IMG/VR virus record: IMGVR_UViG_2778261687_000011
Coordinates: 1-12,632 of that record
Length of the DNA: 12,632 nt
Strand: one strand, 5' to 3'
Source: a virus
Lineage: Duplodnaviria > Heunggongvirae > Uroviricota > Caudoviricetes
Positions 1 to 12,632 of the stretch are shown piece by piece; the first letter of the stretch is position 1, and every line of letters begins with the position of its first letter. The notes under the pieces were generated by a model that worked only from the letters and a program-made list of their open reading frames with translations, was not told where the DNA came from and did not search any database. The position numbers were made by a program, and so were the translations under genes.

Positions 1-546
1 AAGCGTGCGTATTGCCTGAAAACACAACCCGCTACGGGGGAGACTTACCCGAAATCTGATTTATTCAACAAAGCCGACTTCCGTCTGATGTCACGAGAGG
101 TCGTAGAGAATATCAAACAGCTACCCGAAAGAAATCTATTTATGAAGGGGGTTCTTTCGTGGGTTGGCGGAAAAACTGATGTTGTAGAATACGTGCGTGC
201 TGAACGTGTCGCAGGTGATTCTAAATTCAACGGCTGGAAGTTGTGGAACCTAGCACTTGAAGGTATAACAAGTTTCTCCACATTCCCGCTGAGGATGTGG
301 ACATACATTGGATTGTTTGTTGCCGGTCTATCTTTTTTATATGGCGCGTGGATGATTGTAAACACTCTTGCCTTTGGCAACCCAGTTCGTGGTTACCCTT
401 CGCTCCTTGTTTCAATCCTTTTCCTTGGCGGAATACAGTTGATTGGAATCGGTGTGTTAGGTGAATATATCGGCAGAATTTATATTGAAACCAAACAACG
501 TCCAAAATATGTTCTAAAAAATGTCAGGAAAGACAGCAATGACTAA
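1..546 (+). CDS. gtrB: Bactoprenol glucosyltransferase GtrB (GT2 family), 5'-partial; continues upstream of the window
   Basis: Frame 1 is open from base 1. The translation [14 protein letters not shown]...[21 protein letters not shown]...[16 protein letters not shown]...[12 protein letters not shown] closely matches my recollection of the GtrB C-terminal half, including the two C-terminal transmembrane helices. The first ~25 codons match less well than the rest. Confidence 0.88.
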
Positions 547-1957
547 CGATTCTAAAAATTTAGGAATTTTACTGTTTGTTGGTTTTTTATATGTGCTCCC
601 TTTCATTATCGGTGGACATTTATACGTAGATGATTTTTTGCGTATAGAGATACCATATGGATGGGATCATAATGGTAGATATTTTTCAACAGTCCTGTCT
701 AATCTCATTGGCAACGGTCATATTCTAATATTATCTCCATTTACTATGATGATTGCAGCGCTGTTCCTCATTTACCCTGCACACAAAATCAGCAGTGTAT
801 TTTTTGGTAGCGAGTTGAGTTTTGCGAAAGCATCATTTTCTTTATCACTTTTACTATCCCCATTTTTTATAAATAATCTTGCCTATCAGTATGATGCAAT
901 TTTGATGTCCGCATCTGTAGGCATGGCTGCGATGGCAGCGTACTACTGTTATCTCGGAGTTTCTTCAAAGCTCTTTTATGCTACAGCATTCATTCTGCTA
1001 ATACTGGCAATTTCATCTTATCAGTCATCTATTGCAGTATACTTATCAATTATATTGATACTAGCCATACACAGCATGATGTCAGGTAAAGCAACTATTT
1101 TTAGTGCTATTAAGTTTTGCGTCATTGCTGGCGTTCTAATGCTTGTTGCATACGCACTATACAAGAAGGTGATTTTTAACCCCGATGATATGAGTGAGTA
1201 TACAAAGATGCGCTCTGAAATGCTGGGCATTGACATGTATACGTTAAAAAACATGTTCACCTCCTATCTTAAATTCAAGGAAATCTTTTATGATTTATTC
1301 CATGGGTTTATAGGAAAAATTTTACTTTTGTATGTTACGCTTCCTTTTGCTGTGATTTTATTAAAAAAAGGATTAAGCTTGCCTGTAAAATTAACGAGTG
1401 TTGTTTTTTACTTGTTTATTATCTTCCTTTCCTTTGGCATGCTACTGATTCTAAAAAATCCACCAGTGACCAGTCGTTCTATGGTTTCGGGCGGAGTGAT
1501 AATCATGGCATCGACAATGATTATTTTTACTAATATCACCTTTAAAAGGCTTGATTGGGTATCAGTTGTGCCGATGGTAATATCATTTATTTTTGTAAGC
1601 TGTTTCTTCATGCTTCAAAATATAAATTATTCCAGAATTGATAATGTCTTAATGCGTACAAATGCAGTCTTATCGCTGCAAAATAAAGATTACCAGAAAA
1701 TTTATCTAAAAATAAACAAACCCAGTTCAGCATCAGAACCATACAGAAAAGCATTTCCTTTCATATACAATATGAATAGATACTTCTATACTGGCAATCC
1801 TTTCATGGATAAAGTCTCCCATTTAAAACTGGGGTATAGTATCTACCCGTGCGATTCTGGTTGTAAAAAAATAGAATCAGATGGAACTGTGAGATTCAAC
1901 GCTCAAAACATGATATTGAAAGAGCGAAATGGACAAGCAATTGTTATAGTGAACTAA
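539..1957 (+). CDS. GtrC-like type-specific O-antigen glucosyltransferase (polytopic membrane protein)
   Basis: ORF of 472-478 aa starting immediately after gtrB (ATG 539 overlaps the gtrB stop at 544-546, AGGA about 10 nt upstream; alternative in-frame ATG at 521 has no SD). Many hydrophobic segments in the first ~370 aa and a hydrophilic C-terminal domain; AT-rich like gtr loci. Assignment is by operon position and topology, not by recognised sequence motifs. Confidence 0.65.
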
Positions 1958-1964
1958 TTATTTT

Positions 1965-1988
1965 GATGCCAACACTTTTGTTGGCATC
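1965..1988 (+). terminator. Perfect 10-bp hairpin (gatgccaaca-cttt-tgttggcatc) just after the gtrC-like stop; candidate intrinsic terminator or mRNA-stabilising stem-loop
   Basis: Inverted repeat read directly from the sequence; followed by accTTTgc, a weak U tract. Confidence 0.4.
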
Positions 1989-2020
1989 ACCTTTGCAAAC
2001 TCATTAGTGGGCTGATCTAA

Positions 2021-2690
2021 ATGGCAAAAACAGACATTAATAACGGAGTTGTAGTTGCACGTTTTATTGCTATATTGCTGGTAGTTTTACTACATGCCAG
2101 TGCCGGACCTTTCGGGGCTAAACTCGCTCCTGACTGGGAGTGGGCCAATATTTACAGCGCAATATCGAAACAATGCATTGGTATTTTCATTGTCATAACT
2201 GGCTTTCTCTATGCAAATAAAGAAATTGAGTTTAAAGGCTTCATCCTTAAAGGAATAAATCTCCTTGTAATTCCACTGGCGTTTTGGTGGGTAATTTACG
2301 CAGCATATTTGATACTTTTTAAAAATGCAGGCATAGATAGTTTTAGCCCTATGAAACCATCAAGCATACACCTTTGGTTTATGTACGATTACATTGCAAT
2401 TTATCTTTTTGTTCCAATGATAGTTATGGGATGTAGAGAAATAAGAACGCGCTATAGCCTTTTGATATTCGCAGTTCTGTTTTACAGCACATCCTTATAC
2501 CCAGAGCTTAATGCAATAGGAATACCCGCTCCGAAGATAAACGTTCCATTTGCAAGTTATTTAATGCTCTATGTTTTTGCAGGTTACATAGCTGCACGCA
2601 AGGAAGATTTAATAATTAAGTACAGGATTGTATTTGCTCTCCTTTCATTGACACTTTCCGTTGTTACCATTTATGTTAATAAAGGGATAC
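2021..2690 (+). pseudogene. Acyltransferase family 3 (Oac/OafA-like O-antigen acetyltransferase) gene, 3'-truncated at about 2690
   Basis: N-terminal ~224 aa are hydrophobic with acyltransferase-3-like segments (VVARFIAILLVVLLHASAGPFG, IFIVITGFLY, HLWFMYDYIAIYLFVPMIV). At about 2690 composition switches from AT-rich to GC-rich and the rest of ORF 2021..3250 becomes Arg/Pro/Ser-rich nonsense that is the reverse strand of phage genes. Full-length family members are about 330 aa. Confidence 0.6.
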
Positions 2691-3030
2691 CGAATTCAAT
2701 CAGGCGCCAGTGTGGCGTCGGGGCGTTTTCACCGAGATCAGGATGTTTTTTCAGGACTGCACCATGCAGCACGCCGATCCTAAATCCGAGGTTACCGGTG
2801 GTTTTGAAGATGCGGTTGTTCCATCGCATAGCCACGTTTGCGGCAATGCTGCGGCCTGTTAACGGGTCATCAATCCTGGCGGCGTTCGCTTTTGCTTTTT
2901 CGACAATCACGTTACCAGCGCGCCGGAGTGCGGCCCGTCCACCGCGACGACGCAGATCGTCACTGATGGATGATAGTTTCCCCACCAAACTCTCAACTCC
3001 AGTAATGCTGATATCAATGCCGTCAGCCAT
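2671..3030 (-). CDS. HK97 gp10-family tail-completion/head-tail joining protein, C-terminally truncated at the junction
   Basis: Translation contains IDDPLTGRSIAANV...TPHWRLIEFG, typical of the HK97 gp10 family, but ends 5 codons after EFG with residues (IPLLT) encoded by AT-rich non-phage DNA. Family members normally continue about 40-50 aa further. GAGGAG SD upstream of ATG 3030. Confidence 0.65.
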   Translation of the reverse strand: MADGIDISITGVESLVGKLSSISDDLRRRGGRAALRRAGNVIVEKAKANAARIDDPLTGRSIAANVAMRWNNRIFKTTGNLGFRIGVLHGAVLKKHPDLGENAPTPHWRLIEFGIPLLT

Positions 3031-3355
3031 CGTTCACTCCTCGCGAGCATGGCAGCGTCAGATATTCCCGGCCGCTTTTATCGTCTTCCAGCACGCCCTG
3101 AATATCGTAAACGCGTCCACGGTAAAGAATGCGGTGCTTATCCGTGACATCATCACGCCAGCGAATAGTGATCCGTGTGGTTACCTCGTTTTGTCCGGCC
3201 TGCGCGGCCACAAAATCGCGAGCAGACAAATCGGTAACGTTGGCCCATAGCTCAGCCATGTCAGCCCATCCATTAACCACCGCGCCGGTAACCGGGCTCT
3301 GCGTTTTAACAGGCTTCTGAAGCATGATTCGTTTATTGAGCTTCCCCGCCTGCAT
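3023..3355 (-). CDS. Phage head-closure / head-tail adaptor protein
   Basis: 110-aa ORF in the expected position between connector and gp10-like gene; ITIRWRDDV...RILYRGRVYDIQGV resembles the head-closure family; AGGGGG SD upstream; 8-nt overlap with the downstream gene. Confidence 0.7.
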   Translation of the reverse strand: MQAGKLNKRIMLQKPVKTQSPVTGAVVNGWADMAELWANVTDLSARDFVAAQAGQNEVTTRITIRWRDDVTDKHRILYRGRVYDIQGVLEDDKSGREYLTLPCSRGVNDG

Positions 3356-3357
3356 GA

Positions 3358-3537
3358 TTACCCCCTGGGCTTGCCGCTGAGGTAAGTATGCTGTGGAAGT
3401 TCAGCTTCACTCTCTTCAACTACCATTGACTGGTAGATCACCGCCGTCAGAGCTTCGTTTGACTCCGCCAGCCGATTCATCGCTGCTGTCTGGGCTGCCA
3501 TTGCTGTCAGCAGCTGGTTTACCTGTTGCTCGTTCAT
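3358..3537 (-). CDS. Small hypothetical protein (59 aa), head-module gene not present in the ORF track
   Basis: Hand translation of the minus strand gives MNEQQVNQLLTAMAAQTAAMNRLAESNEALTAVIYQSMVVEESEAELPQHTYLSGKPRG with a natural helical composition; its stop lies 2 nt before the head-closure ATG. Weak SD. Competes with the overlapping ORF 3416..3607. Confidence 0.4.
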   Translation of the reverse strand: MNEQQVNQLLTAMAAQTAAMNRLAESNEALTAVIYQSMVVEESEAELPQHTYLSGKPRG

Positions 3538-3597
3538 AGGCGATTTTCATCCACTTTTTTAGCCACTCACGGCGGGCGGCACATCCTGAACAGGCCA

Positions 3598-3930
3598 TCA
3601 GTGCCACCTCCTGTGCTGCATCAGTAGTGCTTCAACTCCAAGCGGTAGCTCAGAAGTAATATTTCCGACATTGACTGCTTCCCGGTTTGCGTACCAGTGA
3701 CCGATAAGAAGCAGCATTGCCGCCCATATGCCGGAAGTGAAAAGGATCTCACGTGGCGGCATTTCCCCTTCCACTGGCGGCGTCAACGACTCCACCAGCG
3801 TGCCGTCGCAGAATTTCTCAACATAATCGACGGCAGCCGATGCGTAGGCCGCAATAAGAGAATCTTCGGCGTCGCTATCAACCCTCAGATGCGTCTTTAT
3901 CTGCGCCATCTGCTCCGCGCTTATTTCCAC
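3598..3930 (-). CDS. Phage gp6-like head-tail connector protein
   Basis: N-terminus AQIKTHLRVDSDAEDSLI and C-terminal HWYANRE...LPLGVEALL are characteristic of the gp6-like connector family. GTG start at 3930 with GGGGT upstream; an in-frame ATG at 3909 is an alternative start. Confidence 0.75.
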   Translation of the reverse strand: MEISAEQMAQIKTHLRVDSDAEDSLIAAYASAAVDYVEKFCDGTLVESLTPPVEGEMPPREILFTSGIWAAMLLLIGHWYANREAVNVGNITSELPLGVEALLMQHRRWH

Positions 3931-4120
3931 CTTTACCCCCGGTTTTGGCTTTTACAGGCTGTTCAGGATCGGAGGTTTTCGCCTTTTCGGGATCAACCTC
4001 TTCGGCCAGGTGCAGTTTTACCAGCGCTTCGCCGATTTCTTTCTTCACTACGCGGGTTTCGCCCTGGGATACTGTACCCAGGTGATAATGCGAGAACATA
4101 CGAAGAGCTTTAATTTTCAT
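3878..4120 (-). CDS. Hypothetical small protein immediately downstream of the major capsid gene
   Basis: 80-aa ORF starting 37 nt after the capsid stop; the N-terminal ~55 aa look protein-like, the Gly/Lys-rich C-terminus overlaps the gp6-like start by 32-53 nt and may be frame noise. No clear SD. Confidence 0.3.
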   Translation of the reverse strand: MKIKALRMFSHYHLGTVSQGETRVVKKEIGEALVKLHLAEEVDPEKAKTSDPEQPVKAKTGGKGGNKRGADGADKDASEG

Positions 4121-4156
4121 ACATTAAACGCGGCCATTGCTGACCGCGTCCTCCTG

Positions 4157-5320
4157 TCAGGAGCCAGCAGAAACCGCAATATCGCCAGTGACGATAGCTG
4201 CAGGACGATAGTGCGCCAGCGCCAGGCGTTCTTCGCACAGGATGGTCAGCATGTTTTTAACGAAGTTATCGCGATCCTGGTTGCTGATCTCGATAGTGGC
4301 ATCCATGCGGTCCCACACCTGCGATGCCAGACCAAACGCACCAACGGTAAATTTGCCTGCCGTCTGCGCCGTGGTCGAAACTACCGGCAGACCCCAGAGC
4401 ACTTTGGAGGCAAAGGCCTGTGGGCCGCCAAGGATGTAATTGCCGTTAGCATCTTTCAGCAGCGCGATACGGTGCCAGTCCGCCGGGTTGAGAATGATAC
4501 CGTCGGCTTCAAACTCGCTCAGCGACACCTGATAGATTGCATGCGCCAGAACATCAGCACCGGTATCTCCGGTCGCGTTGAGTGCAGTTTCGTAGTCGTT
4601 CGCCACCACGTTCAGCCCCTGGAGGTTGTCGCCGGTGCCATCACCGTTCAGCATCTGGTTTTCTTCCACCAGCGCCAGGCCATACATCATGCGGGAGTTG
4701 ATGTAGGACTGCAGTGCCGGGGCATCGTCCATGATCTGGCGCGACGCCTGGATCCAGTGAGCGATGGTTTTCACGTTCGCCGTTTCTTTGGTGAAGGTAA
4801 TGTTACTTTCCGGCTTGAGGGTACCTTCCGCCACTGGCGCCGCGGCGTTGGTAAACACATTTTCACGCACGTATTCAAGCGCGTTACTGGTGATGCGCCC
4901 CTGCGCCAGCAGGTCACGTACGGTCAGGCGACGCAGGCCCGGCATAAGGATACCCGGTTGCTGCTGCGGCAGAACCAGTGCGCCGGCGGAGTTCGCGCCA
5001 GAGCCGATCGCTTTGTCGAAGCTGGTCACTTTCGCTTTGGTACGTGAGCCGTCCCAGCCTTTCATCAGGTCTTCGGACACGCGTTCTGCAAAGGATTTCT
5101 GGGCGGTCTGTTCAGGCGAGTTGCCAGCCAGCTTCTGCTCAAGATCGAACAGTCGAGTGCCGGTGGCTTTCAGCTCATCCTGGGCTTTCGCCAGGTCGGT
5201 CTGCAGCTGCTTGTTGATTTCGCCGTTCTGGTTGATGGATTTACGCTGTTCCTCGATAAGCTCCTTCACTTCTTTCTGGGAGTTCTCGATCGCTTTTTCC
5301 AGGGTTGCTAATTCAGACAT
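4157..5320 (-). CDS. Major capsid protein, HK97 family (with N-terminal delta/scaffolding domain)
   Basis: 387 aa; coiled-coil N-terminal ~100 aa followed by a capsid domain, the same size and architecture as HK97 gp5; sits directly after the prohead protease gene; GGAG SD. Confidence 0.92.
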   Translation of the reverse strand: MSELATLEKAIENSQKEVKELIEEQRKSINQNGEINKQLQTDLAKAQDELKATGTRLFDLEQKLAGNSPEQTAQKSFAERVSEDLMKGWDGSRTKAKVTSFDKAIGSGANSAGALVLPQQQPGILMPGLRRLTVRDLLAQGRITSNALEYVRENVFTNAAAPVAEGTLKPESNITFTKETANVKTIAHWIQASRQIMDDAPALQSYINSRMMYGLALVEENQMLNGDGTGDNLQGLNVVANDYETALNATGDTGADVLAHAIYQVSLSEFEADGIILNPADWHRIALLKDANGNYILGGPQAFASKVLWGLPVVSTTAQTAGKFTVGAFGLASQVWDRMDATIEISNQDRDNFVKNMLTILCEERLALAHYRPAAIVTGDIAVSAGS

Positions 5321-5331
5321 GTTTTGCTCCG

Positions 5332-6012
5332 TTAGGGATTCCGCAGGTTAGCGGCAAAGGAAGTTATGCGCTGTGCCAGCGCGTCAATGTCGCCGCCGCC
5401 GAACTCGCTTCGGCCTGCGGACTTCACGCGGGCGATAAACGCCTGCGCTTCAGCACGCGTAAGGCCGACTGAATCCCTCAGCCAGGCCTCCGCGTCACGA
5501 ATGGTTTTAATGCCGTCAATGCTCTTCATGGCGGTTACGCCCGCCAGTTCGTTGGCCGGGAATGTGCAGACACTGATTTCCCGCAGATAAGTAATGTTTT
5601 TGAAAATGAGGCCGGACGTGCCGACGGTGTAATCGTCAGGGCCGACTGAAAAACCCACCGACATGCCTTCAACCGTGCCATGCTGCATGGCGGCCTTCAG
5701 ATCCTCGGCCAGGCTCAATCTGGGTGTGAGCTGCCCTCGGACATAAAGCCCCTTCTCGTCTTCGTGCATGGCATCCCATTTGCCAACCGGGATGGCTCGC
5801 GTCTGGTGGTTGAAGAACATCGCCACCTTGCGGCTCTGGTTAGCCACCACACCAGCGAAAGCCCCGGGCAAAATAATGTCGCCGTCGGCGTCGGTGTTAT
5901 TGAAAACCGAGGCATACCCTTCAAACGTTCCCTTGCTGCCGTCGCCGGTGAACTTGATTTCGGTCTGGTCGAACGCCAGCGTCTTGTGAATATCAGGCAT
6001 CGTGGCCCCCAT
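5332..6012 (-). CDS. Prohead maturation protease, HK97 family (peptidase U35/S78)
   Basis: 226 aa, between portal and capsid genes; sequence ADGDIILPGAF...GLYVRGQL...FSVGF is typical of HK97-type prohead proteases. An alternative ATG at 5998-6000 (M5) has a better SD. Confidence 0.9.
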   Translation of the reverse strand: MGATMPDIHKTLAFDQTEIKFTGDGSKGTFEGYASVFNNTDADGDIILPGAFAGVVANQSRKVAMFFNHQTRAIPVGKWDAMHEDEKGLYVRGQLTPRLSLAEDLKAAMQHGTVEGMSVGFSVGPDDYTVGTSGLIFKNITYLREISVCTFPANELAGVTAMKSIDGIKTIRDAEAWLRDSVGLTRAEAQAFIARVKSAGRSEFGGGDIDALAQRITSFAANLRNP

Positions 6013-6039
6013 AAAAATTAAGCCCCGTCATTGCGGGGC
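6011..6039 (-). terminator. Terminator-like hairpin (GCCCCG-CAAUGA-CGGGGC) plus UUAAUUUUU at the portal/protease boundary; possible attenuator
   Basis: Read from the sequence; the stem encodes the last portal codons and the U tract runs into the protease start. Confidence 0.25.
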
Positions 6040-7289
6040 TCTTTGTTTGTTCCGAGGTCGGTAATGGGAACGTTCTGCGACTGGCGCGTCGCCACATCAC
6101 CGCCAGGCAAAGGCGGAAGATTATCCAGTCGCCGCACTTCGTTAACGGTACGGATCCCTGTATTAACCATGGTTTGCATGAAGGTAGCGCGGCTCGCTGA
6201 GTCACCACGAAGCAGGCCATCAAGGTTATGCTCGGCGTGCAGCCTTCCCTGATCGGACTCTTTTACCAGCCAGCGCTCTATGCTGTACTCCCAGCGATCG
6301 AGATAGGGCTTCAGGGTGTACTGGAGAAAGCCGAGGTTCTGCTGTTCAATGCCGCTGCCCCATGAAGTTGTTTTTTCAACATCACCAACCAGGTGCGGCG
6401 GAACACCGTAAAAGCGCGCCAGCTCTGCCACCTGAAACTTACGGGCCTCAAGCATCTGTGCGTCCTGCGGCGAGATGCCTATCGGCTGCGTGGTGAACCC
6501 GCTCTCAATGATCCAGAGGCGTTTTCTCACCGGGCCGCCGGCAATCTCCTTAAAGTTTTCCTCCAGCTGTCCGCGCTGCTCTTTGGTCAGCACCTTGCCG
6601 TCAGTCATCAGGATTTGCGGTGATTTGGCGCCGTTGGCGAAAAACTCCCGCTGGTTATCTTCCATAGCAATAGCCACGCCTGCAGATTTGGCGCTGAACG
6701 CCAGCGGCGATAACCCGACCAGCCCGTTAAAGCCGAAGCCTTTCAGGTGGAATATTTCTTTCGGCTTAAAGTCCACATACTCGCTGTCGCGCCGGTACCG
6801 GTAGATGACATTTTTTCCATCGAGCCGGACATCCATATTCGCGCTCATCAGCGGAAGCAGGCTGATGACATCGCCGACGCTGTTTCGCTCCACATGCGCG
6901 TAGGCATTGCCGTAGGCGCAAAGCTGCATTGTCATTGCCTCGCGAAACTCCAGCGCGGTCATGAAGTTGTTGGGCCGGAAGCGAAGAAGCTTCGCCAGCG
7001 GGTTCTGGTTGTCGACTTTCTTTCGCTGATCATCGATGGTTTCAAAAACATCCAGCGGTAACGAGGCTGTTACGGTGGAGATGAGCCGGATGCAGGCCCA
7101 TACGGTGCTGATCGACATGTTGCGCTCATCGCTCACCACCGATTCCCCGACGGTGCCGTGAGCTGATGTGCCCGCCATCTGCGAGCCATTATCCGGTGAA
7201 ACCAGGCGGCCACCGGTCAGAATAGAGGCCATGCGCGCCCAGAATGGCGATCGCGTTCGCAGGTCAATGCTGTAATCGGTATCTGCCAT
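6018..7289 (-). CDS. Portal protein, HK97 family
   Basis: 423 aa, immediately downstream of TerL and upstream of the protease; size and position match the HK97 portal family. Confidence 0.9.
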   Translation of the reverse strand: MADTDYSIDLRTRSPFWARMASILTGGRLVSPDNGSQMAGTSAHGTVGESVVSDERNMSISTVWACIRLISTVTASLPLDVFETIDDQRKKVDNQNPLAKLLRFRPNNFMTALEFREAMTMQLCAYGNAYAHVERNSVGDVISLLPLMSANMDVRLDGKNVIYRYRRDSEYVDFKPKEIFHLKGFGFNGLVGLSPLAFSAKSAGVAIAMEDNQREFFANGAKSPQILMTDGKVLTKEQRGQLEENFKEIAGGPVRKRLWIIESGFTTQPIGISPQDAQMLEARKFQVAELARFYGVPPHLVGDVEKTTSWGSGIEQQNLGFLQYTLKPYLDRWEYSIERWLVKESDQGRLHAEHNLDGLLRGDSASRATFMQTMVNTGIRTVNEVRRLDNLPPLPGGDVATRQSQNVPITDLGTNKEPRNDGA

Positions 7290-7291
7290 TT

Positions 7292-8824
7292 TTAAACGCT
7301 CAAAAAGTTGTAAATGAAATCGTTAACGTCGCCCGGATCCTCCACCTCATCACTGGTCTGTGCGCCGATAGACATCGCCAGCGCCACCATGCCGTCGATA
7401 CGGCCGCTCGATTTGCCTTTCACAAACTTGCGGTTACCGGCGGGGTCGGTGATTACCGTGGCGTTTTTGGCGCACATCTCGAGGATCGGATGGTTGCCGT
7501 GCTTCAGTTGCGCGCCGAGCAGTTTAGCTTCCAGCTCCCTGAGCGCAGGCGACATGGAGACAAAACCCTGGCCGAATTCCACGAACCGCTCGAGCTCCGC
7601 CTCAGTGAAACCGGCGTCGATGAGATGCGGGCGAAGGAAGCGCATGTTGTAGCGGTCGAACGCCAGCGCCCGGACGTTACAGATATCAAAAACGCGCCGC
7701 AGCTCCCGTGCAATAAAGGCGTACTCAATGGCTTTGCCCGGCGTCGTGTTCAGCCAGCCCTGCTTCGCCCATATGTCATAAGGCACGCGATCGTTACGCG
7801 CCTTGTCCGCCAGCCCCTCTTCAGGTAGCCAGAACTTACAGTGCACATCGCCCTGCGTTGTGTTGAGCACCAGCGCGGTCAGGTCCGACACGCTGGAAAG
7901 GTCCAGCCCGCCCCAGACGGTAGCGCCCGCCAGTTCGCCAGGCTCTTCTTTGTTCATGTGCCAGACGGTCTGGCTGACGAACGGGCTTTTCGCCTCAACC
8001 CTGCGGTTCAGTACAAGGTTCTCAAATTCAGCCTGGCGCGACGGGAGGCGCTTGGCGCTGGCGGCCATATCCAGCACTTCTTTCTGGTTCATGAACACAT
8101 CGAAGGCCGGGTTAGCCAGCCTGATGGCTTCGACAGAGAAAGGATCGATATCTTCCGGCGCGGTCTGCAGCCGTACCACCGTTCGCGGATCGGCACCGGT
8201 CAGGCCATCATCAATCAGCAGGCTGAGCAGGTCGCTCGCATCGGGTGCCTGGGTGCTGATGATTACCGAGATAGGGTTGTCCTGAGCAGCGGTCGCGGTT
8301 TCCAGAGCTTCATAAAGCGGGTCACGCGGCCCGCGCACCTGGCCCAGCTCATCATGGGCGACAAATCGCGGCGAGAAACCGTAGGCCGTTGTGGCCTCAG
8401 CGCTCAACGCGCGATAGTAAGAGCCCAGTTCAGGGCAGTGAATCTCTTTGGCTGAATCTTTTATGGCAACGTATTGCATCAGTGTCGGATTCATACGACA
8501 CATTTTCGAAGCAAGGTTAAACAGAATTGCTGCCTGATCGCGTGATCGGGCTGCGGAATACAATTGTGAGTTAGGCGCTGATTCGGGACCAACCAGATAA
8601 AGCAGCATGATTATCGCTGTCTCTACCGTCTTGGCGTTCTTTCGCCCCCTGCTGATAATCGCGCGGCGAGTACCATGCTCATTATCAAATATTGCTCTGA
8701 AGTCATCCTTCATGAAAGGAGCCATCTTCAGAGGCTGGCCTACGTACTTCCCTTCAGGGATCAGGATGTGTTTCTCACACCAGGCTATATTGCGCTCAGC
8801 CCTTGTAAGCTTTTTTTTCGCCAT
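7292..8824 (-). CDS. Terminase large subunit
   Basis: 510 aa; Walker A-like SRGRKNAKT near the N-terminus, Walker B-like FVAHDELG, C-terminal nuclease-like region; follows the TerS gene after a 13-nt gap. Confidence 0.92.
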   Translation of the reverse strand: MAKKKLTRAERNIAWCEKHILIPEGKYVGQPLKMAPFMKDDFRAIFDNEHGTRRAIISRGRKNAKTVETAIIMLLYLVGPESAPNSQLYSAARSRDQAAILFNLASKMCRMNPTLMQYVAIKDSAKEIHCPELGSYYRALSAEATTAYGFSPRFVAHDELGQVRGPRDPLYEALETATAAQDNPISVIISTQAPDASDLLSLLIDDGLTGADPRTVVRLQTAPEDIDPFSVEAIRLANPAFDVFMNQKEVLDMAASAKRLPSRQAEFENLVLNRRVEAKSPFVSQTVWHMNKEEPGELAGATVWGGLDLSSVSDLTALVLNTTQGDVHCKFWLPEEGLADKARNDRVPYDIWAKQGWLNTTPGKAIEYAFIARELRRVFDICNVRALAFDRYNMRFLRPHLIDAGFTEAELERFVEFGQGFVSMSPALRELEAKLLGAQLKHGNHPILEMCAKNATVITDPAGNRKFVKGKSSGRIDGMVALAMSIGAQTSDEVEDPGDVNDFIYNFLSV

Positions 8825-8837
8825 TCGCTAATCAGCC

Positions 8838-9272
8838 TTAATCAATTTCCCAGGGCTTTTTCTCCCGAGCCAGATTGCTGTTGGCCCGGCCAACAGTTTT
8901 GGGATCGGCAGTAGCCTGGCGGGTAATCCGCAGGCGGGTCGCAAGAGAAGATGCCGATCGCACCTCGCGCTCGCGCATCGTGAGCAGCCTGTCGTAGCGC
9001 TTCAGCCCGTCTTCGCGGGACAACCACTCGAGCTCAAACTCTTCAATCTGGGTGGTGAGCAGCCGGGCCTGCACCACATGCCGACAGTACATCTCCAGCA
9101 TGTCCCGGTGTGTTTCGGTGAATGAGCTGGCCGGGTTGTCATTAACCAGCCGGACCCAGACGTTAATCTCCGGATCGCTCAGGTGAATGGACGGCTGCAA
9201 CCTGCTTTCAGCCAGTGCCGGCAGCGAGACAGCAGACGTCGCAGCCAGAGACTTTCTGCCTCGCTGTGCCAT
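8838..9272 (-). CDS. Terminase small subunit (probably P27/HK97-like family)
   Basis: ATG at 9270-9272 (aa 45 of the longer TTG-initiated ORF 8838..9404) preceded by AAGGA. Basic N-terminus MAQRGRKS; position directly upstream of TerL and downstream of HNH. The family name is an inference. Confidence 0.72.
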   Translation of the reverse strand: MAQRGRKSLAATSAVSLPALAESRLQPSIHLSDPEINVWVRLVNDNPASSFTETHRDMLEMYCRHVVQARLLTTQIEEFELEWLSREDGLKRYDRLLTMREREVRSASSLATRLRITRQATADPKTVGRANSNLAREKKPWEID

Positions 9273-9404
9273 CGCGTTTTTCCTTTTTTTCTGGACGTTT
9301 TTAAAAATAAAACTGGGAGCGCGGTCTTTAAGAATTTGGTACCAGAGTTTTACCCCTCCCCCTCCCTTACCAACATAAATATGAGAATTGATATCATTTC
9401 TCAA

Positions 9405-9614
9405 TTACGTGTAAGCTTGAGTGAGGTATGCCAGAGGGCACCAGACGATCACCAACGCCGATTGGCAATGTGAGGGTAATGGTAGGGTAATGGTAGGCAG
9501 CATCTCACCGACCTCATGATTGAAGGAGACTGCAGTGGCATGTTTAAAGCTCACGCTATCAATGCTCAACTCAATCAACTTCCCATCACGGTATTCAATC
9601 TTCATGTCTTGCAT
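9405..9614 (-). CDS. Hypothetical small protein between HNH and terS genes (may instead be non-coding cos region)
   Basis: ATG preceded by AGGAG that overlaps the HNH stop (translational-coupling geometry); the N-terminal ~40 aa look natural, but the C-terminal part reads through an 11-bp tandem repeat. Confidence 0.35.
   Translation of the reverse strand: MQDMKIEYRDGKLIELSIDSVSFKHATAVSFNHEVGEMLPTITLPLPSHCQSALVIVWCPLAYLTQAYT
9473..9497. repeat. Tandem direct repeat, about 2.3 copies of the 11-mer agggtaatggt, in the HNH-terS interval
   Basis: Read directly: agggtaatggt agggtaatggt agg. Coordinates may be off by 1. Confidence 0.55.
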
Positions 9615-9626
9615 CAACTACTCCTG

Positions 9627-9917
9627 TTACCAGATAACACGGCCTTCATTATCGAACTCGGTGACCGTTCCGCCCTTCTCCATCCTCTGCTTTACCGAGT
9701 CGTGGCAACGTTTGCAAAGTGACTGAAGATTATCCGGATCATGAAAGAGCCTATCGTCTCCTTTGTGCGGGATGACATGGTCAACGATCGTTGCCGCTAT
9801 CACCTGATTGCGCCGGAGGTGGAACTCACAAAGAGGTTGCTTCTGAAGCTGGTGATAGCGGAGTCGGTACCAACGCTTGGAATTGTAGAGGCTATGCCAA
9901 GGTGAATTGGATGCCAT
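9627..9917 (-). CDS. HNH endonuclease (terminase-associated)
   Basis: 96 aa with Cys/His pairs (CEFH...DHVIPH...CKRCH) typical of phage HNH proteins; lies upstream of terS as in HK97-like cos phages; GAGGGAG SD. Confidence 0.88.
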   Translation of the reverse strand: MASNSPWHSLYNSKRWYRLRYHQLQKQPLCEFHLRRNQVIAATIVDHVIPHKGDDRLFHDPDNLQSLCKRCHDSVKQRMEKGGTVTEFDNEGRVIW

Positions 9918-9994
9918 GGTTAATCTCCCTCTGCATTGCTAAATCGCCAATTCCGGCTAACGGCGTGCCCAGGCTCACAGCTGAAAGACTTTCT

Positions 9995-10024
9995 TTGAAG
10001 TGCGCGTGAGATGCGCTTTATACT
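9995..10024 (+). promoter_or_regulatory. Candidate sigma70 promoter (TTGAAG, 18-nt spacer, TATACT) for the moron gene
   Basis: Hexamers read from the sequence about 95 nt upstream of ATG 10120 in the divergent intergenic region. Not validated. Confidence 0.3.
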
Positions 10025-10119
10025 CCAGCAATAGCCGCCAGCAATGCCAGTAAGTATCAAATTACAAAATTATCTTTGTTCATTTTGTTGAGTGACACCT
10101 CAAAAAGGAGGCATGGGAA

Positions 10120-10653
10120 ATGAGTCTGGAAAAATTGCTAATCAAAGATAGAAAATGTGGTTCATGTTCTGTTTGTTGTAAATCCCTGAGAATCGAAGAG
10201 CCAGAGCTTAAAAAATTTGCTGGAGTGCCATGTCAGCATCTTAAAGCACAGGGCGGATGTTCGATTTATAATGATCGCCCATCTCTATGTCGTACGTGGT
10301 ACTGCGGATGGAGAGTTTTAGGTATCGGTCCGGAAATGAGGCCTGATCGTTGTGGTGTTCTTATTCGCTTCGATGGCAAAGCTCTGTGCTTTCAGCCAGT
10401 AAATGATGGTCAAGTTACTACATTGCTTGATCCAGAGCCTTTACGTGTTTTAAGCAGTTCAATTGCAAATGGGATGACCGTTCAGATTTCGATTCCGACA
10501 AAAGAAGGCTTTTGCTCTTCAAATGTCGACGTTACAGCAGCTATGACCGAGGTAGTTAAAACCAGAGAGTTTGATAAGATTCGTGCAACTATGATTGGAT
10601 TAATTCAATTCGCTGCGAATTCGAAGACAGACCCGATTGCTCCTTTAAATTAG
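10120..10653 (+). CDS. YkgJ/UPF0153-family cysteine-cluster protein (CxxCxxCC putative zinc/iron-chelating domain); moron
   Basis: 177 aa with N-terminal CGSCSVCC then C..H...GGCSIYNDRP..C....C, matching the CxxCxxCC domain family that includes flagellin lysine-N-methylase FliB. Strong SD AAGGAGG 9 nt upstream. Lower GC than the flanking phage genes and opposite orientation to the late operon. Confidence 0.75.
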   Translation: MSLEKLLIKDRKCGSCSVCCKSLRIEEPELKKFAGVPCQHLKAQGGCSIYNDRPSLCRTWYCGWRVLGIGPEMRPDRCGVLIRFDGKALCFQPVNDGQVTTLLDPEPLRVLSSSIANGMTVQISIPTKEGFCSSNVDVTAAMTEVVKTREFDKIRATMIGLIQFAANSKTDPIAPLN

Positions 10654-10661
10654 CATCCGAT

Positions 10662-10679
10662 GCCGGGGTTGCACCCGGC
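10662..10679 (+). terminator. Weak terminator-like hairpin (gccggg-gttgca-cccggc) after the moron gene
   Basis: 6-bp GC stem 9 nt after the stop codon; the following tract TTAACAAAC is only weakly U-rich. Confidence 0.25.
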
Positions 10680-11047
10680 TTAACAAACGAGAAACATACG
10701 AATCGGTTGCAAATCTCAAGCAGCTCTTGTCTTTTAACATTAGACGATCGTTTCATTAGCATTTCATCTGATGTACTGAATAAGTTTTTCATAAAACATT
10801 CCCATTCTAATTATCTAGGCTGCATTTAAATGCCTCACCACTTCCCGGAGTGGCCACGCTCATGCCCTTGAGTTGCTGTCGCTTCATCGCCGCTTATAAC
10901 CGGTGCGCGTCTGGCGTTCGCGCTGCTCTACCGGAGCTTATTTTGATATAAGAACCTTGACCCGTCGCTATACAGGCTCGCTCAATGGCGACTCAGGGCA
11001 GCATCATTACTGCTGCATTGCCTTTCGGCTGCGGTCTAACCGCTTTG

Positions 11048-11278
11048 CTACTTGATTTCGAGTTTCTCCTTCTGACAATTTGCCTGCCACGCTTTGTTAT
11101 GCGTCAGGATGTCGCGCTTGGTCTGCTTATCCAACACATCCCAGTCATTATCTGTTGCATAGATAGGATGAACCCAGTCGCACGCCGTATCGACTACCTC
11201 AACCCTTACGGGTCCAGTTTGTGCGCAGCTCGCGATCAACGTCGTCGCCAGGCATATGATTAACTTTCTGCTGTACAT
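11048..11278 (-). CDS. Outer-membrane spanin (Rz1-like lipoprotein, o-spanin), overlapped architecture
   Basis: Internal ATG at 11276-11278 of ORF 11048..11449 gives MYSRKLIICLATTLIASC..., a signal peptide with lipobox LIASC, followed by a short periplasmic domain with extra Cys. Starts inside the i-spanin gene in another frame and extends beyond it. Confidence 0.6.
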   Translation of the reverse strand: MYSRKLIICLATTLIASCAQTGPVRVEVVDTACDWVHPIYATDNDWDVLDKQTKRDILTHNKAWQANCQKEKLEIK

Positions 11279-11471
11279 TACTGGCCTCTCTGGTGACTTC
11301 TGCCTGACGTTCTGCCACTGCAACCTTCGCCGCTGCGTTTTCTTCAGTGCGTTGTTGATCGGCTTTCGCTTCTGCTTTGCTGGTTCCGCGAATATGGCCA
11401 AGACCAAACCCACCAGCAGCGGCAACACAGATAGCACCAATGACACCAATGATGATTTCTACAATGCTCAT
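11199..11471 (-). CDS. Inner-membrane spanin (Rz-like, i-spanin)
   Basis: 90 aa with one N-terminal transmembrane helix (IVEIIIGVIGAICVAAAGG) then a charged Ala/Glu/Gln-rich coiled-coil-like region; start overlaps the endolysin stop (ATGA); contains the o-spanin start. Confidence 0.6.
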   Translation of the reverse strand: MSIVEIIIGVIGAICVAAAGGFGLGHIRGTSKAEAKADQQRTEENAAAKVAVAERQAEVTREASNVQQKVNHMPGDDVDRELRTNWTRKG

Positions 11472-11998
11472 GCAATCACCGCTTTCGCTTTGCCGTAACG
11501 CACGCGTCTGTCGTTAATGCCGTTCTGACCGCCATTGATAATCTGAGTGATGCGCACCAGGTCATCGGTGTACTTCAGGCAACCTTTGGAGGCGTAGAAC
11601 CATGCAGCAGAACGCGCAGCATTGATGTCTTTCTCCAGCAGTTCAGGGTTAGTAACCAGGTCAAGCTTCAGACCATTGCCGCAATCACGGTAATTGGTGA
11701 GACCGGTAATCTGAATTAATCCGCGCCCACGGTATTTCCAGCCATCACCAGCAGCTTTATTACCCAGGCGGTTGCTGTATACCAGGTTCGCGATAGCTTC
11801 CTGACTTGCTGGCTTACCGTTGGCACGTCCAAGCATTAAGGCCTGGTAGTTCGTTACCCGGCGTCCAAACGTCGTCAGTAATGCGGCAGGCGTGTAGTTG
11901 AAGTTCTCCACCAGCGCAGAGAATCCCGCCGATTCATGTCCTACCTGAGCAATGAACATCGCCTTATCTTTTGGTTCAGTGATGCCGAACTCTTTCAT
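11468..11998 (-). CDS. Endolysin, glycoside hydrolase family 19 (chitinase-like), missing about 25-30 N-terminal residues
   Basis: FIAQVGHESAGF...GDGWKYRGRGLIQITGLTNYR...ITQIINGGQNGINDRR are GH19 endolysin motifs. The frame stays open and homologous-looking upstream of M1 for about 15 codons, then hits a stop at about 12044 with no start codon. No holin gene upstream. Confidence 0.85.
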   Translation of the reverse strand: MKEFGITEPKDKAMFIAQVGHESAGFSALVENFNYTPAALLTTFGRRVTNYQALMLGRANGKPASQEAIANLVYSNRLGNKAAGDGWKYRGRGLIQITGLTNYRDCGNGLKLDLVTNPELLEKDINAARSAAWFYASKGCLKYTDDLVRITQIINGGQNGINDRRVRYGKAKAVIA

Positions 11999-12032
11999 TG
12001 CATCCGTACAGGCTAACCATGAGCATAGTTCG

Positions 12033-12632
12033 ATGTCACGCGTTTACAGGTGGGGATATCAACGTGGATTTGTGCCAGGCAACCCATGCGTAGGCGTCGA
12101 TAAATACCCTAAACCTCAGCGCGACCGATACATTACGGATGAAGAGTATTTAGCAATTTATGACTGTGCTACTGATCCGGTAAAAGCCGCAATGGAAATT
12201 GCTTATCTCTGTGCAGCGAGGGTTTCCGATGTTCTGAAAATGGACTGGAATCAGATAATGGATAAAGGAATTTTCATTCAACAGGGTAAAACTGGAGTTA
12301 AGCAGATTAAAGCGTGGACAGACCGCTTGCACTCCGCTGTCAATCTTTGCAGGAAATCAGGGGAAGATGGCGCTGTCATCAAAACCATGTACGGAGAGCG
12401 ATATTCCTATAAAGGTTTCAATGAAGCCTGGAGAAAGGCTAGGAATGCGGCTGCTGAAAAAATTGGCAGACCGTTAGACTGCACGTTCCATGATCTGAAG
12501 GCGAAAGGCATTTCTGACTATGAAGGAAGTGGCCGTGATAAGCAAAAATTCAGTGGTCACAAAACTGAATCACAGGTGTTGGTATACGACAGGAAAGTAA
12601 AAATTAGCCCAACTTTAAACAGAAAAATGTGA
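12033..12632 (+). pseudogene. Lambda-family tyrosine integrase, C-terminal catalytic domain only (5'-truncated)
   Basis: Catalytic-domain motifs ARVSD (Arg-I), QQGKTG (Lys), TFHDLK (His), GHKTESQ...LVYDR (His, Tyr) with spacing parallel to lambda Int; the N-terminal arm-binding and core-binding domains are absent. The preceding part of ORF 11952..12632 is the reverse strand of the endolysin 5' end. Stop codon at the window end. Confidence 0.75.

Follow-up and report, generated by a model that had tools for sequence, protein, structure and literature searches.

The left end of the viral DNA analysed here (12,632 nucleotides, the whole of which is referred to as the window) raises the question of whether it carries a working serotype-conversion module with a glucosylation specificity of its own, or only what is left of such a module. 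The reading put forward below, to which a probability of roughly 0.85 is assigned, is that the region represents a decayed prophage-borne O-antigen modification cassette from a cryptic prophage of E. coli, in which the gtrC gene has been orphaned and is probably silent. It belongs to a known kind of module and is an ordinary example of one in decay, with two of the four cassette genes destroyed and, within the window, only gtrC still whole.

Layout of the window

A composition scan of the window reveals a low-G+C block (~0.32–0.38) at ~250–2690, a step from ~0.37 to 0.55 at ~2690, and a block of ~0.55 G+C thereafter. From the ORF listing and domain scans, the latter block contains head genes of the HK97 type, which are on the minus strand (Table 1). 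Past the head genes are found a Cys-rich ORF, genes for lysis and part of an integrase gene. Scanning the window with Rfam and for tRNAs yielded no match, and thus no att-site tRNA is present within it. The C-terminal part of gtrB, the GtrC-like protein, the hairpin and the AT3 acyltransferase fragment that an earlier note on this DNA had described are all present where it had placed them. Likewise, the right boundary that it had drawn, at 2690, proved to be a real breakpoint, as the intact relatives diverge from the window at 2689/2690.

Table 1. Coordinates of features in the window, with the evidence on which each assignment is based
Feature	Positions	Strand	Basis
IS903 end, 75 bp	1–75		100% identity to phage IS903 copies
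Right-hand 9-bp target-site duplication, GACTTCCGT	76–84	+	Same 9 bp at other IS903 end
gtrB 3' remnant, codons 155–310 and stop	76–546	+	Exact match to GtrB of L008
gtrC-type gene, intact, 472 aa	539–1957	+	PF14264
Stem-loop between gtrC and acyltransferase gene	1964–1989	+	Fold
AT3 acyltransferase 5' remnant, codons 1–223 of 328	2021–2689	+	PF01757, identity to L003
Read-through tail of acyltransferase ORF, 186 codons	2690–3250	+	ORF listing, divergence of intact relatives
gp10-like gene (HK97-gp10-like head-tail)	2671–3030	-	PF04883
Head-completion gene	3023–3355	-	Domain scan
Connector	3598–3930	-	Domain scan
Capsid	4157–5320	-	Domain scan
Prohead protease	5332–6012	-	Domain scan
Portal	6018–7289	-	Domain scan
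Large terminase	7292–8824	-	Domain scan
HNH endonuclease	9627–9917	-	Domain scan

The junctions in gtrB and in the acyltransferase gene

The first 75 bases of the window do not belong to gtrB, but form one end of IS903, an element of the IS5 family, and are identical over their whole length in a sequence search to the IS903 of phages HK022, O276 and SJ46; megablast returned IS903B matches to this edge in thousands, from plasmids and E. coli. The inverted repeat of the element, GGCTTTGTTGAATAAATC, is found as its reverse complement at 58–75, ending at base 75. The insertion site corresponds to gtrB codons 155–157, and gtrB is split after codon 157. Target duplication by IS903 is usually 9 bp, and the 9 bp adjoining the element in the window, GACTTCCGT, recur at 6463–6471 of a second locus, L015 (contig NLGV01000042.1 of the E. 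coli assembly GCA_002226155.1), where they precede the other IS903 end. Across the two contigs (L015 on the left, L012 or the window on the right) the element is consequently bounded by GACTTCCGT on either side, and the right junction between IS903 and gtrB is identical in L012 and the window.

The product of the left junction was predicted beforehand as GtrB residues 1–157 with GFVE added at their C-terminal end, the four extra residues and the stop being encoded by the IS repeat. The predicted protein of 161 aa was found as an exact match in a public protein collection, its gene being located at the extreme end of NLGV01000042.1. Upstream of this junction, L015 carries an intact gtrA (120 aa) and the chromosomal genes hiuH-msrPQ-zinT-yodB. 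Another contig of the same assembly, NLGV01000045.1, starts 2 nt to the left of window base 1 and has the same gene series as the window over its first 10.5 kb. Judged by the sequence on its two sides, the boundary between IS903 and gtrB is a genuine transposition of IS903 into gtrB. The window starts inside a repeat, as draft contigs do, and the start of the matching draft contig falls inside IS903 as well; both GCA_002226155.1 contigs break off 75–77 bp inside the element, the interior of which was collapsed by short-read assembly. Such a start is what would be expected if this junction, together with that between the acyltransferase and gp10-like genes, were a chimera of draft assembly. That explanation is nevertheless extremely improbable in view of the perfect 9-bp target duplication at both IS903 junctions, as in real transposition, and of the presence of the 2689/2690 junction in the independent assemblies L008 (GCA_012386995.2) and L012 (GCA_002226155.1).

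What remains of gtrB in the window translates, without a single difference, to the C-terminal half of the 310-aa GtrB of L008. The remnant keeps two hydrophobic segments (GtrB residues 231–249 and 264–282), gave no domain in a Pfam scan, and is devoid of the GT-A catalytic domain (residues 1–154, including the DVD motif at 93–95). The GT-A half lies beyond IS903, where it is ended by IS sequence after four extra codons. As the GT-A domain has been lost, the cassette in the window would be unable to make UndP-glucose by itself. The intact GtrB (310 aa, GT2) is 88% identical to YfdH of E. coli K-12, annotated as a bactoprenol glucosyl transferase, and the intact GtrA (120 aa, PF04138) is 84% identical to K-12 YfdG. 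The gtrA gene itself is outside the window; it is intact and the first gene in all related loci, and in L015 it is found just across IS903. The earlier note had proposed that this copy of the module may confer a new glucosylation specificity, while conceding that disruption of the operon upstream would speak against it. The proposal is undercut by the splitting of gtrB and the loss of its GT-A domain, the disruption being in gtrB and gtrA remaining intact beyond the IS.

The acyltransferase gene has the same orientation as gtrC and starts 63 nt downstream of it. Its remnant matches Pfam PF01757 (1.6e-24, profile positions 6–226 of 326) and is 100% identical to residues 1–223 of the 328-aa protein of L003. 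Retained are R14-X10-H25, in the first hydrophobic segment, and FIVITG, which is FFXISG-like. An R/K-X10-H motif in TMH1 and FFXISG have been defined for AT3 proteins, R-X10-H is essential in OafA, and AT3-only proteins end after TMH10 (PMC7448272). The remnant is without the last 105 residues, among them the hydrophobic segments 268–286 and 300–318, and the AT3 membrane domain is consequently incomplete. At full length (328 aa) the protein is AT3-only, with no SGNH domain. Among characterised phage proteins phiV10 Oac comes closest to it (26% identity, E 6e-7); Sf6 Oac was undetected at E ≤ 1e-3 with the AT3 protein as query against the phage collection. The label "Oac-like" fits the protein only in a loose sense.

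At 2689/2690 the acyltransferase sequence is joined to the antisense of a gp10-like gene, and the intact relatives all part from the window exactly at this position. The reading frame continues across the junction to give an ORF of 409 aa (2021–3250). This ORF was considered as a real, longer acyltransferase and rejected, since its last 186 codons, rich in A, S, R and P, are antisense to phage genes, and also because of the divergence of all intact relatives at 2689/2690; it is a chimera. The same junction cuts the gp10-like gene at its 3' end. Residues 1–114 of the gp10-like protein align to homologues (tblastn to phage D3 orf14), and its last five codons are acyltransferase antisense; relative to D3 orf14 (495 nt, 164 aa) the protein is short by ~50 C-terminal residues. 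Megablast of 2660–3400 against E. coli gave no match, so that this search did not yield the parental sequence of the gp10 side from before the deletion.

The hairpin between gtrC and the acyltransferase gene has a perfect stem of 11 bp (1964–1974 paired with 1979–1989) and a loop of 4 nt (TTTT), with a centroid energy of -16.5 kcal/mol and a z-score of -2.2. It was rejected as a classical intrinsic terminator, as the T-run is absent after the stem.

The undamaged state of the locus is visible in other E. coli. Six loci (L003–L007 and L009) match window 76–2689 at 100% identity, bar two mismatches in L004, and run on past 2689 into a complete 328-aa AT3 gene, the last 105 codons included. The order of the intact cassette is gtrA-gtrB-gtrC-acyltransferase, and the occurrence of identical DNA in this form bears out the suggestion that the locus once combined glucosylation and acylation. 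The state of the acyltransferase gene was compared in 24 contigs: it is full in 21/24, has the deletion in 2/24, and in 1/24 the contig ends within the gene. One of the loci, L008, matches window 76–11957 at 99.99%, with the same acyltransferase truncation. The two lesions would be independent of each other. Within gtrB, IS903 would have cut off gtrC and the 3' end of gtrB from the promoter, from gtrA and from the sequence encoding the catalytic domain. At 2689/2690, an illegitimate deletion or recombination would have removed the last 105 acyltransferase codons and fused the remainder to the truncated gp10-like gene. Because L008 has the 2689/2690 junction yet retains intact gtrA and gtrB, it is likely that the 3' end of the acyltransferase gene was deleted first (the L008 state), and that IS903 entered gtrB afterwards (the window state).

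The GtrC protein and its relatives

The gtrC product comprises 472 aa when read from the ATG at 539, which has an AGGAAA ribosome-binding site 6–7 nt upstream; the first 8 nt of the gene overlap the end of gtrB, its stop included. A start at another ATG, at 521, would give 478 aa. The earlier note had described a polytopic protein of 470 aa without recognised motifs. Its polytopic character is evident from the hydropathy profile, with ~11 hydrophobic segments in residues 1–360 followed by a soluble tail of ~110 aa. The length required slight correction, and a known family is in fact recognisable: the protein matches Pfam PF14264 (Glucos_trans_II) at 6.9e-25 and 88.3 bits (cut-off 30), over profile positions 4–317 of 317, and PHROG 4829 ("GtrC-like") at 1.2e-37. 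In an alignment of 26 GtrC sequences, D31, D32, R35, R47, P67, D119, Q162, Y208 and R313 are invariant. D31 and D32 directly follow the first hydrophobic segment (residues 8–26), and are probably on the periplasmic side of the membrane. The AlphaFold model computed from the same alignment (pLDDT 90.3, pTM 0.90) predicts a GT-C fold, i.e. that of polyprenyl-phosphate-sugar-dependent membrane glycosyltransferases. In combination, these features support GtrC as a putative periplasm-facing GT-C enzyme that would transfer glucose from UndP-Glc, with both donor and acceptor suggested by family membership.

Relatives of the protein are few. An HMMER search of 1.84 billion representatives returned only four matches below 1e-30, and the best full-length relatives outside its own cluster are 37%, 31% and 31% identical. 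The nearest named relative is a Proteus protein (32% identity). In the phage collection P22 GtrC is 25% identical, and beyond it nothing was found at E ≤ 1e-3; similarity to K-12 YfdI was not detectable. Likewise, pattern scans of the GTDB representative genomes and IMG/VR did not find relatives, a sequence search against PDB chains gave no match, NCBIfam holds no model matching either GtrC or the AT3 protein, and literature searches found no paper that characterises this GtrC. With P22 GtrC as the closest type-specific transferase and no detectable likeness to YfdI, there is no near-identity to any of the characterised transferases compared, and the view of GtrC as uncharacterised stands. Such distances are familiar from Salmonella, where GtrC families are <46% similar to one another and extreme divergence is the rule (PMC3688519). 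As far as its sequence tells, the GtrC family is new only in having no assigned specificity, and otherwise within the known kind. That the locus is a serotype-conversion module of the gtr type, in which the third gene varies, is supported by PF14264 and by the gtrA-gtrB-gtrC order in the relatives.

The module shares with the gtrABC operons of P22, of S. flexneri SfI, SfII, SfIV, SfV and SfX, and of K-12 CPS-53 (yfdG-yfdH-yfdI) the possession of gtrA, gtrB and a variable, polytopic third gene, here of PF14264, in low-G+C prophage DNA next to a tail-spike gene. It differs from them in that gtrB is split by IS903, with gtrA beyond the IS, and in the sequence distance of its third gene from P22 GtrC and YfdI given above. 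Shigella phage SfII resembles the intact cassette in combining gtr glucosylation (gtrII) with an AT3-only O-acetyltransferase (oacD) in one phage, although its proteins are unrelated or very distant, as no Sf matches were obtained in the phage searches with GtrC and AT3. A temperate phage with both gtr and oac functions, SfII, was thus already known (PMC9558356). The acyltransferase is in turn comparable to phiV10 Oac and Sf6 Oac/OacA in being a phage-borne PF01757 protein of ~330 aa with an R-X10-H motif (here R14-X10-H25) and no SGNH domain. The copy in the window is without its C-terminal third.

The orphaned gtrC

In most loci yodB and mtfA-yeeJ flank the prophage remnant that contains the cassette; one locus type has the cassette between yciC/ispA genes and a 4HBT (yciA-like) gene. 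The prophage remnants that carry it differ by several independent deletions. The AT3 gene is convergent with a tailspike gene, the product of which has 811–812 aa in L005, L006, L007 and L009; in L003 and L004 what remains of it is a C-terminal part of 224 aa. Conversion genes beside a tailspike gene are the classic arrangement of O-antigen-converting phages. The attempt to infer the target O-antigen from the tailspike failed, as its identity to phage proteins does not exceed 29% for most of its length. The cluster to which GtrC belongs at 90% identity has 38 members, all named ones from E. coli, and an identical GtrC protein occurs in 56 blocks of a large assembly collection. One cluster member comes from an O28ac/O42:H37 strain, the same serotype as given for mastitis isolate D6-117.29. 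The gtrC module is rare, being absent in a megablast search from 5,426 complete RefSeq E. coli genomes. Megablast of 1–3100 against complete E. coli, phages and plasmids returned only IS903, a distant yfdH and a related acyltransferase, with ≤21% of the query covered by any single record.

From family membership, GtrB of the intact cassette would make undecaprenyl-phosphate-glucose, GtrA would flip it to the periplasm, GtrC (GT-C) would move the glucose onto a specific O-unit sugar, and the AT3 protein would add an acyl group. Alternatively, the PF14264 protein could act on another periplasmic glycan (ECA, capsule or LPS core) or move another sugar, in which case "serotype conversion" would be a mislabel. 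This is conceivable insofar as the closest characterised relative is just 25% identical and specificity is unreadable from sequence, and as O-antigen modification went undetected in an LPS gel assay for two Salmonella GtrC families (PMC3688519). It is very unlikely for a gene that is the third after gtrA and a GtrB so close to the K-12 bactoprenol glucosyl transferase, that lies near a tailspike gene in prophage DNA, and whose Proteus relative likewise stands third after gtrA and gtrB and faces a convergent tail-fibre gene.

A more direct challenge to the reading of the window copy as decayed and probably silent is that the gtrC gene shows no lesion, and that its sequence is the same (100% identity) as in the intact cassettes. 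The orphan gene might be functional if its transcription were driven by an internal promoter or by one derived from the IS, and if its product were supplied with UndP-glucose by GtrA and GtrB of another prophage, so that acylation alone would be lost. A promoter-like hexamer pair, TTGAAA-17-TATGTT, is indeed present at 485–513, just upstream of gtrC, but such sites are not enriched over shuffles, occurring in the window at chance frequency (13 found vs 9.7 ± 2.9 expected). With regard to the supply of UndP-glucose, a second gtr operon could in principle provide GtrA and GtrB; E. coli K-12, for example, carries yfdG/yfdH in CPS-53, and Salmonella genomes have 1–4 gtr operons each (PMC3688519). 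A parallel is found in the Salmonella GtrC family II operons, which likewise combine a defective gtrB with an intact downstream gene: gtrB is deleted, the third gene is intact, and it has been suggested as a possibility that a second operon complements them in trans (PMC3688519). The likeness is limited, as the third gene of family II encodes the AT3-SGNH acetyltransferase OafB (PMC9558356) and that of the window a PF14264 GT-C enzyme, and as the gtrB deletion is family-wide in Salmonella whereas the IS903 insertion is found in a minority of genomes. Moreover, the inserted IS903 separates the native promoter and gtrA from gtrC, the 8-nt overlap between gtrB and gtrC suggests translational coupling to a now headless gtrB, and decay has affected the adjoining acyltransferase gene as well, consistent with relaxed selection acting on the module as a whole. 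A functional orphan gtrC is, on balance, unlikely. The more specific proposal that GtrC performs an uncharacterised O-antigen glucosylation of E. coli, paired with O-acylation in intact strains and acting here via GtrA and GtrB in trans, is quite unlikely. If GtrC did confer a new glucosylation, this might be the reason why strains whose O-antigen gene clusters are nearly identical are split serologically; one of the carriers is typed O28ac/O42:H37.

As a decayed cassette, the locus alone most probably yields neither glucosylation nor acylation. Cataloguing distinct GtrC families helps to identify the genes that underlie O-antigen chemistry, serotyping and phage resistance, and for this purpose it is the intact cassette of other strains that is of use, rather than the window copy. 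The window itself records a stepwise loss that would have taken the acyltransferase first and gtrB second, and as such has a modest bearing on how cryptic prophages shed their conversion genes.

Deletion variants and junctions of the cryptic prophage

The prophage carried by the window circulates in E. coli as at least three deletion variants that arose independently. Another of its remnants, found in three related loci (L001, L003 and L004), has a complete acyltransferase gene and is devoid of all head genes (those of window 2690-9661), and here a C-terminal tailspike fragment of 224 aa with a Peptidase_S74 domain is fused directly to the HNH gene. Within the window, a tyrosine integrase fragment, comprising the C-terminal region, abuts a GH19 endolysin gene that lacks its 5' end, with 176 aa of the endolysin present in the window vs 203 aa in L005, a related E. 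coli locus in which both parental sequences are seen. The sequence at this joint, CGTA, is a 4-bp microhomology of the two parents. The joint is a further illegitimate deletion within the cryptic prophage.

The head-tail joining module in addition contains a mosaic boundary: a megablast search of complete E. coli genomes returned no match for the gp10-like and head-completion genes (window 2690-3285), and the head genes from approximately 3500 onwards are 84-87% identical to those of Klebsiella and E. coli prophages. The top protein match of the gp10-like gene was orf14 of Pseudomonas phage D3 (63%).

Features of the window and of related E. coli loci
Feature	Location	Strand	Remark
AT3 acyltransferase gene, relative of the window's	L011 8002-8973 (E. 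coli NZ_CP182159.1)		
Tailspike fragment/HNH join in the alternative remnant	e.g. L003 12515-13466		compared with window 2690-9661
gtrABC-AT3-tailspike block within ~12.5-kb element	L006 7308-19771		second chromosomal site
GH19 endolysin gene joined to tyrosine integrase fragment	window 11468-12632, junction 12005-12008	endolysin -, integrase +	
Cys-rich ORF, 177 aa	window 10120-10653	+	between HNH gene and lysis genes
LexA-box-like palindrome TACTGTATGCATATACAGTA, near-perfect	L008 8617-8640		beyond the window, on the 5' side of gtrA

The Cys-rich ORF and the gtrA upstream region

The Cys-rich ORF, which lies in a patch of lower G+C (~0.43-0.46) and is kept in every remnant variant that retains the HNH gene, looks like a phage moron. 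It matches PHROG 9155 (unknown function), and a weak CxxCxxCC (PF03692) match falls slightly under the Pfam cut-off.

In L008, a locus with intact gtrA, the palindrome is located in the 115 bp separating gtrA from a divergent 79-aa gene, beyond which follows a gene of 106-127 aa with a Peptidase_S24 match in L006. The divergent genes may be under SOS control. Salmonella gtr operons carry a four-GATC/OxyR signature of phase variation; in contrast, this signature was not apparent in the 115-bp gap, which holds a single GATC.

Conversion genes at other loci

The L006 element, comprising integrase, Dam, TraR-like and DUF4406 genes alongside the gtrABC-AT3-tailspike block, has neither head nor tail-shaft genes and represents either a prophage that has undergone heavy deletion or a small integrative element retaining only receptor-binding and conversion genes.

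In L011, the AT3 gene (92% nucleotide identity to window 2035-2690) adjoins an IS26/qnrS1/aac(3)-IId resistance region. No gtr genes lie alongside; it stands by an integrase remnant at tRNA-Asn, with mtfA next, and thus the acyltransferase moves independently of the gtr genes.
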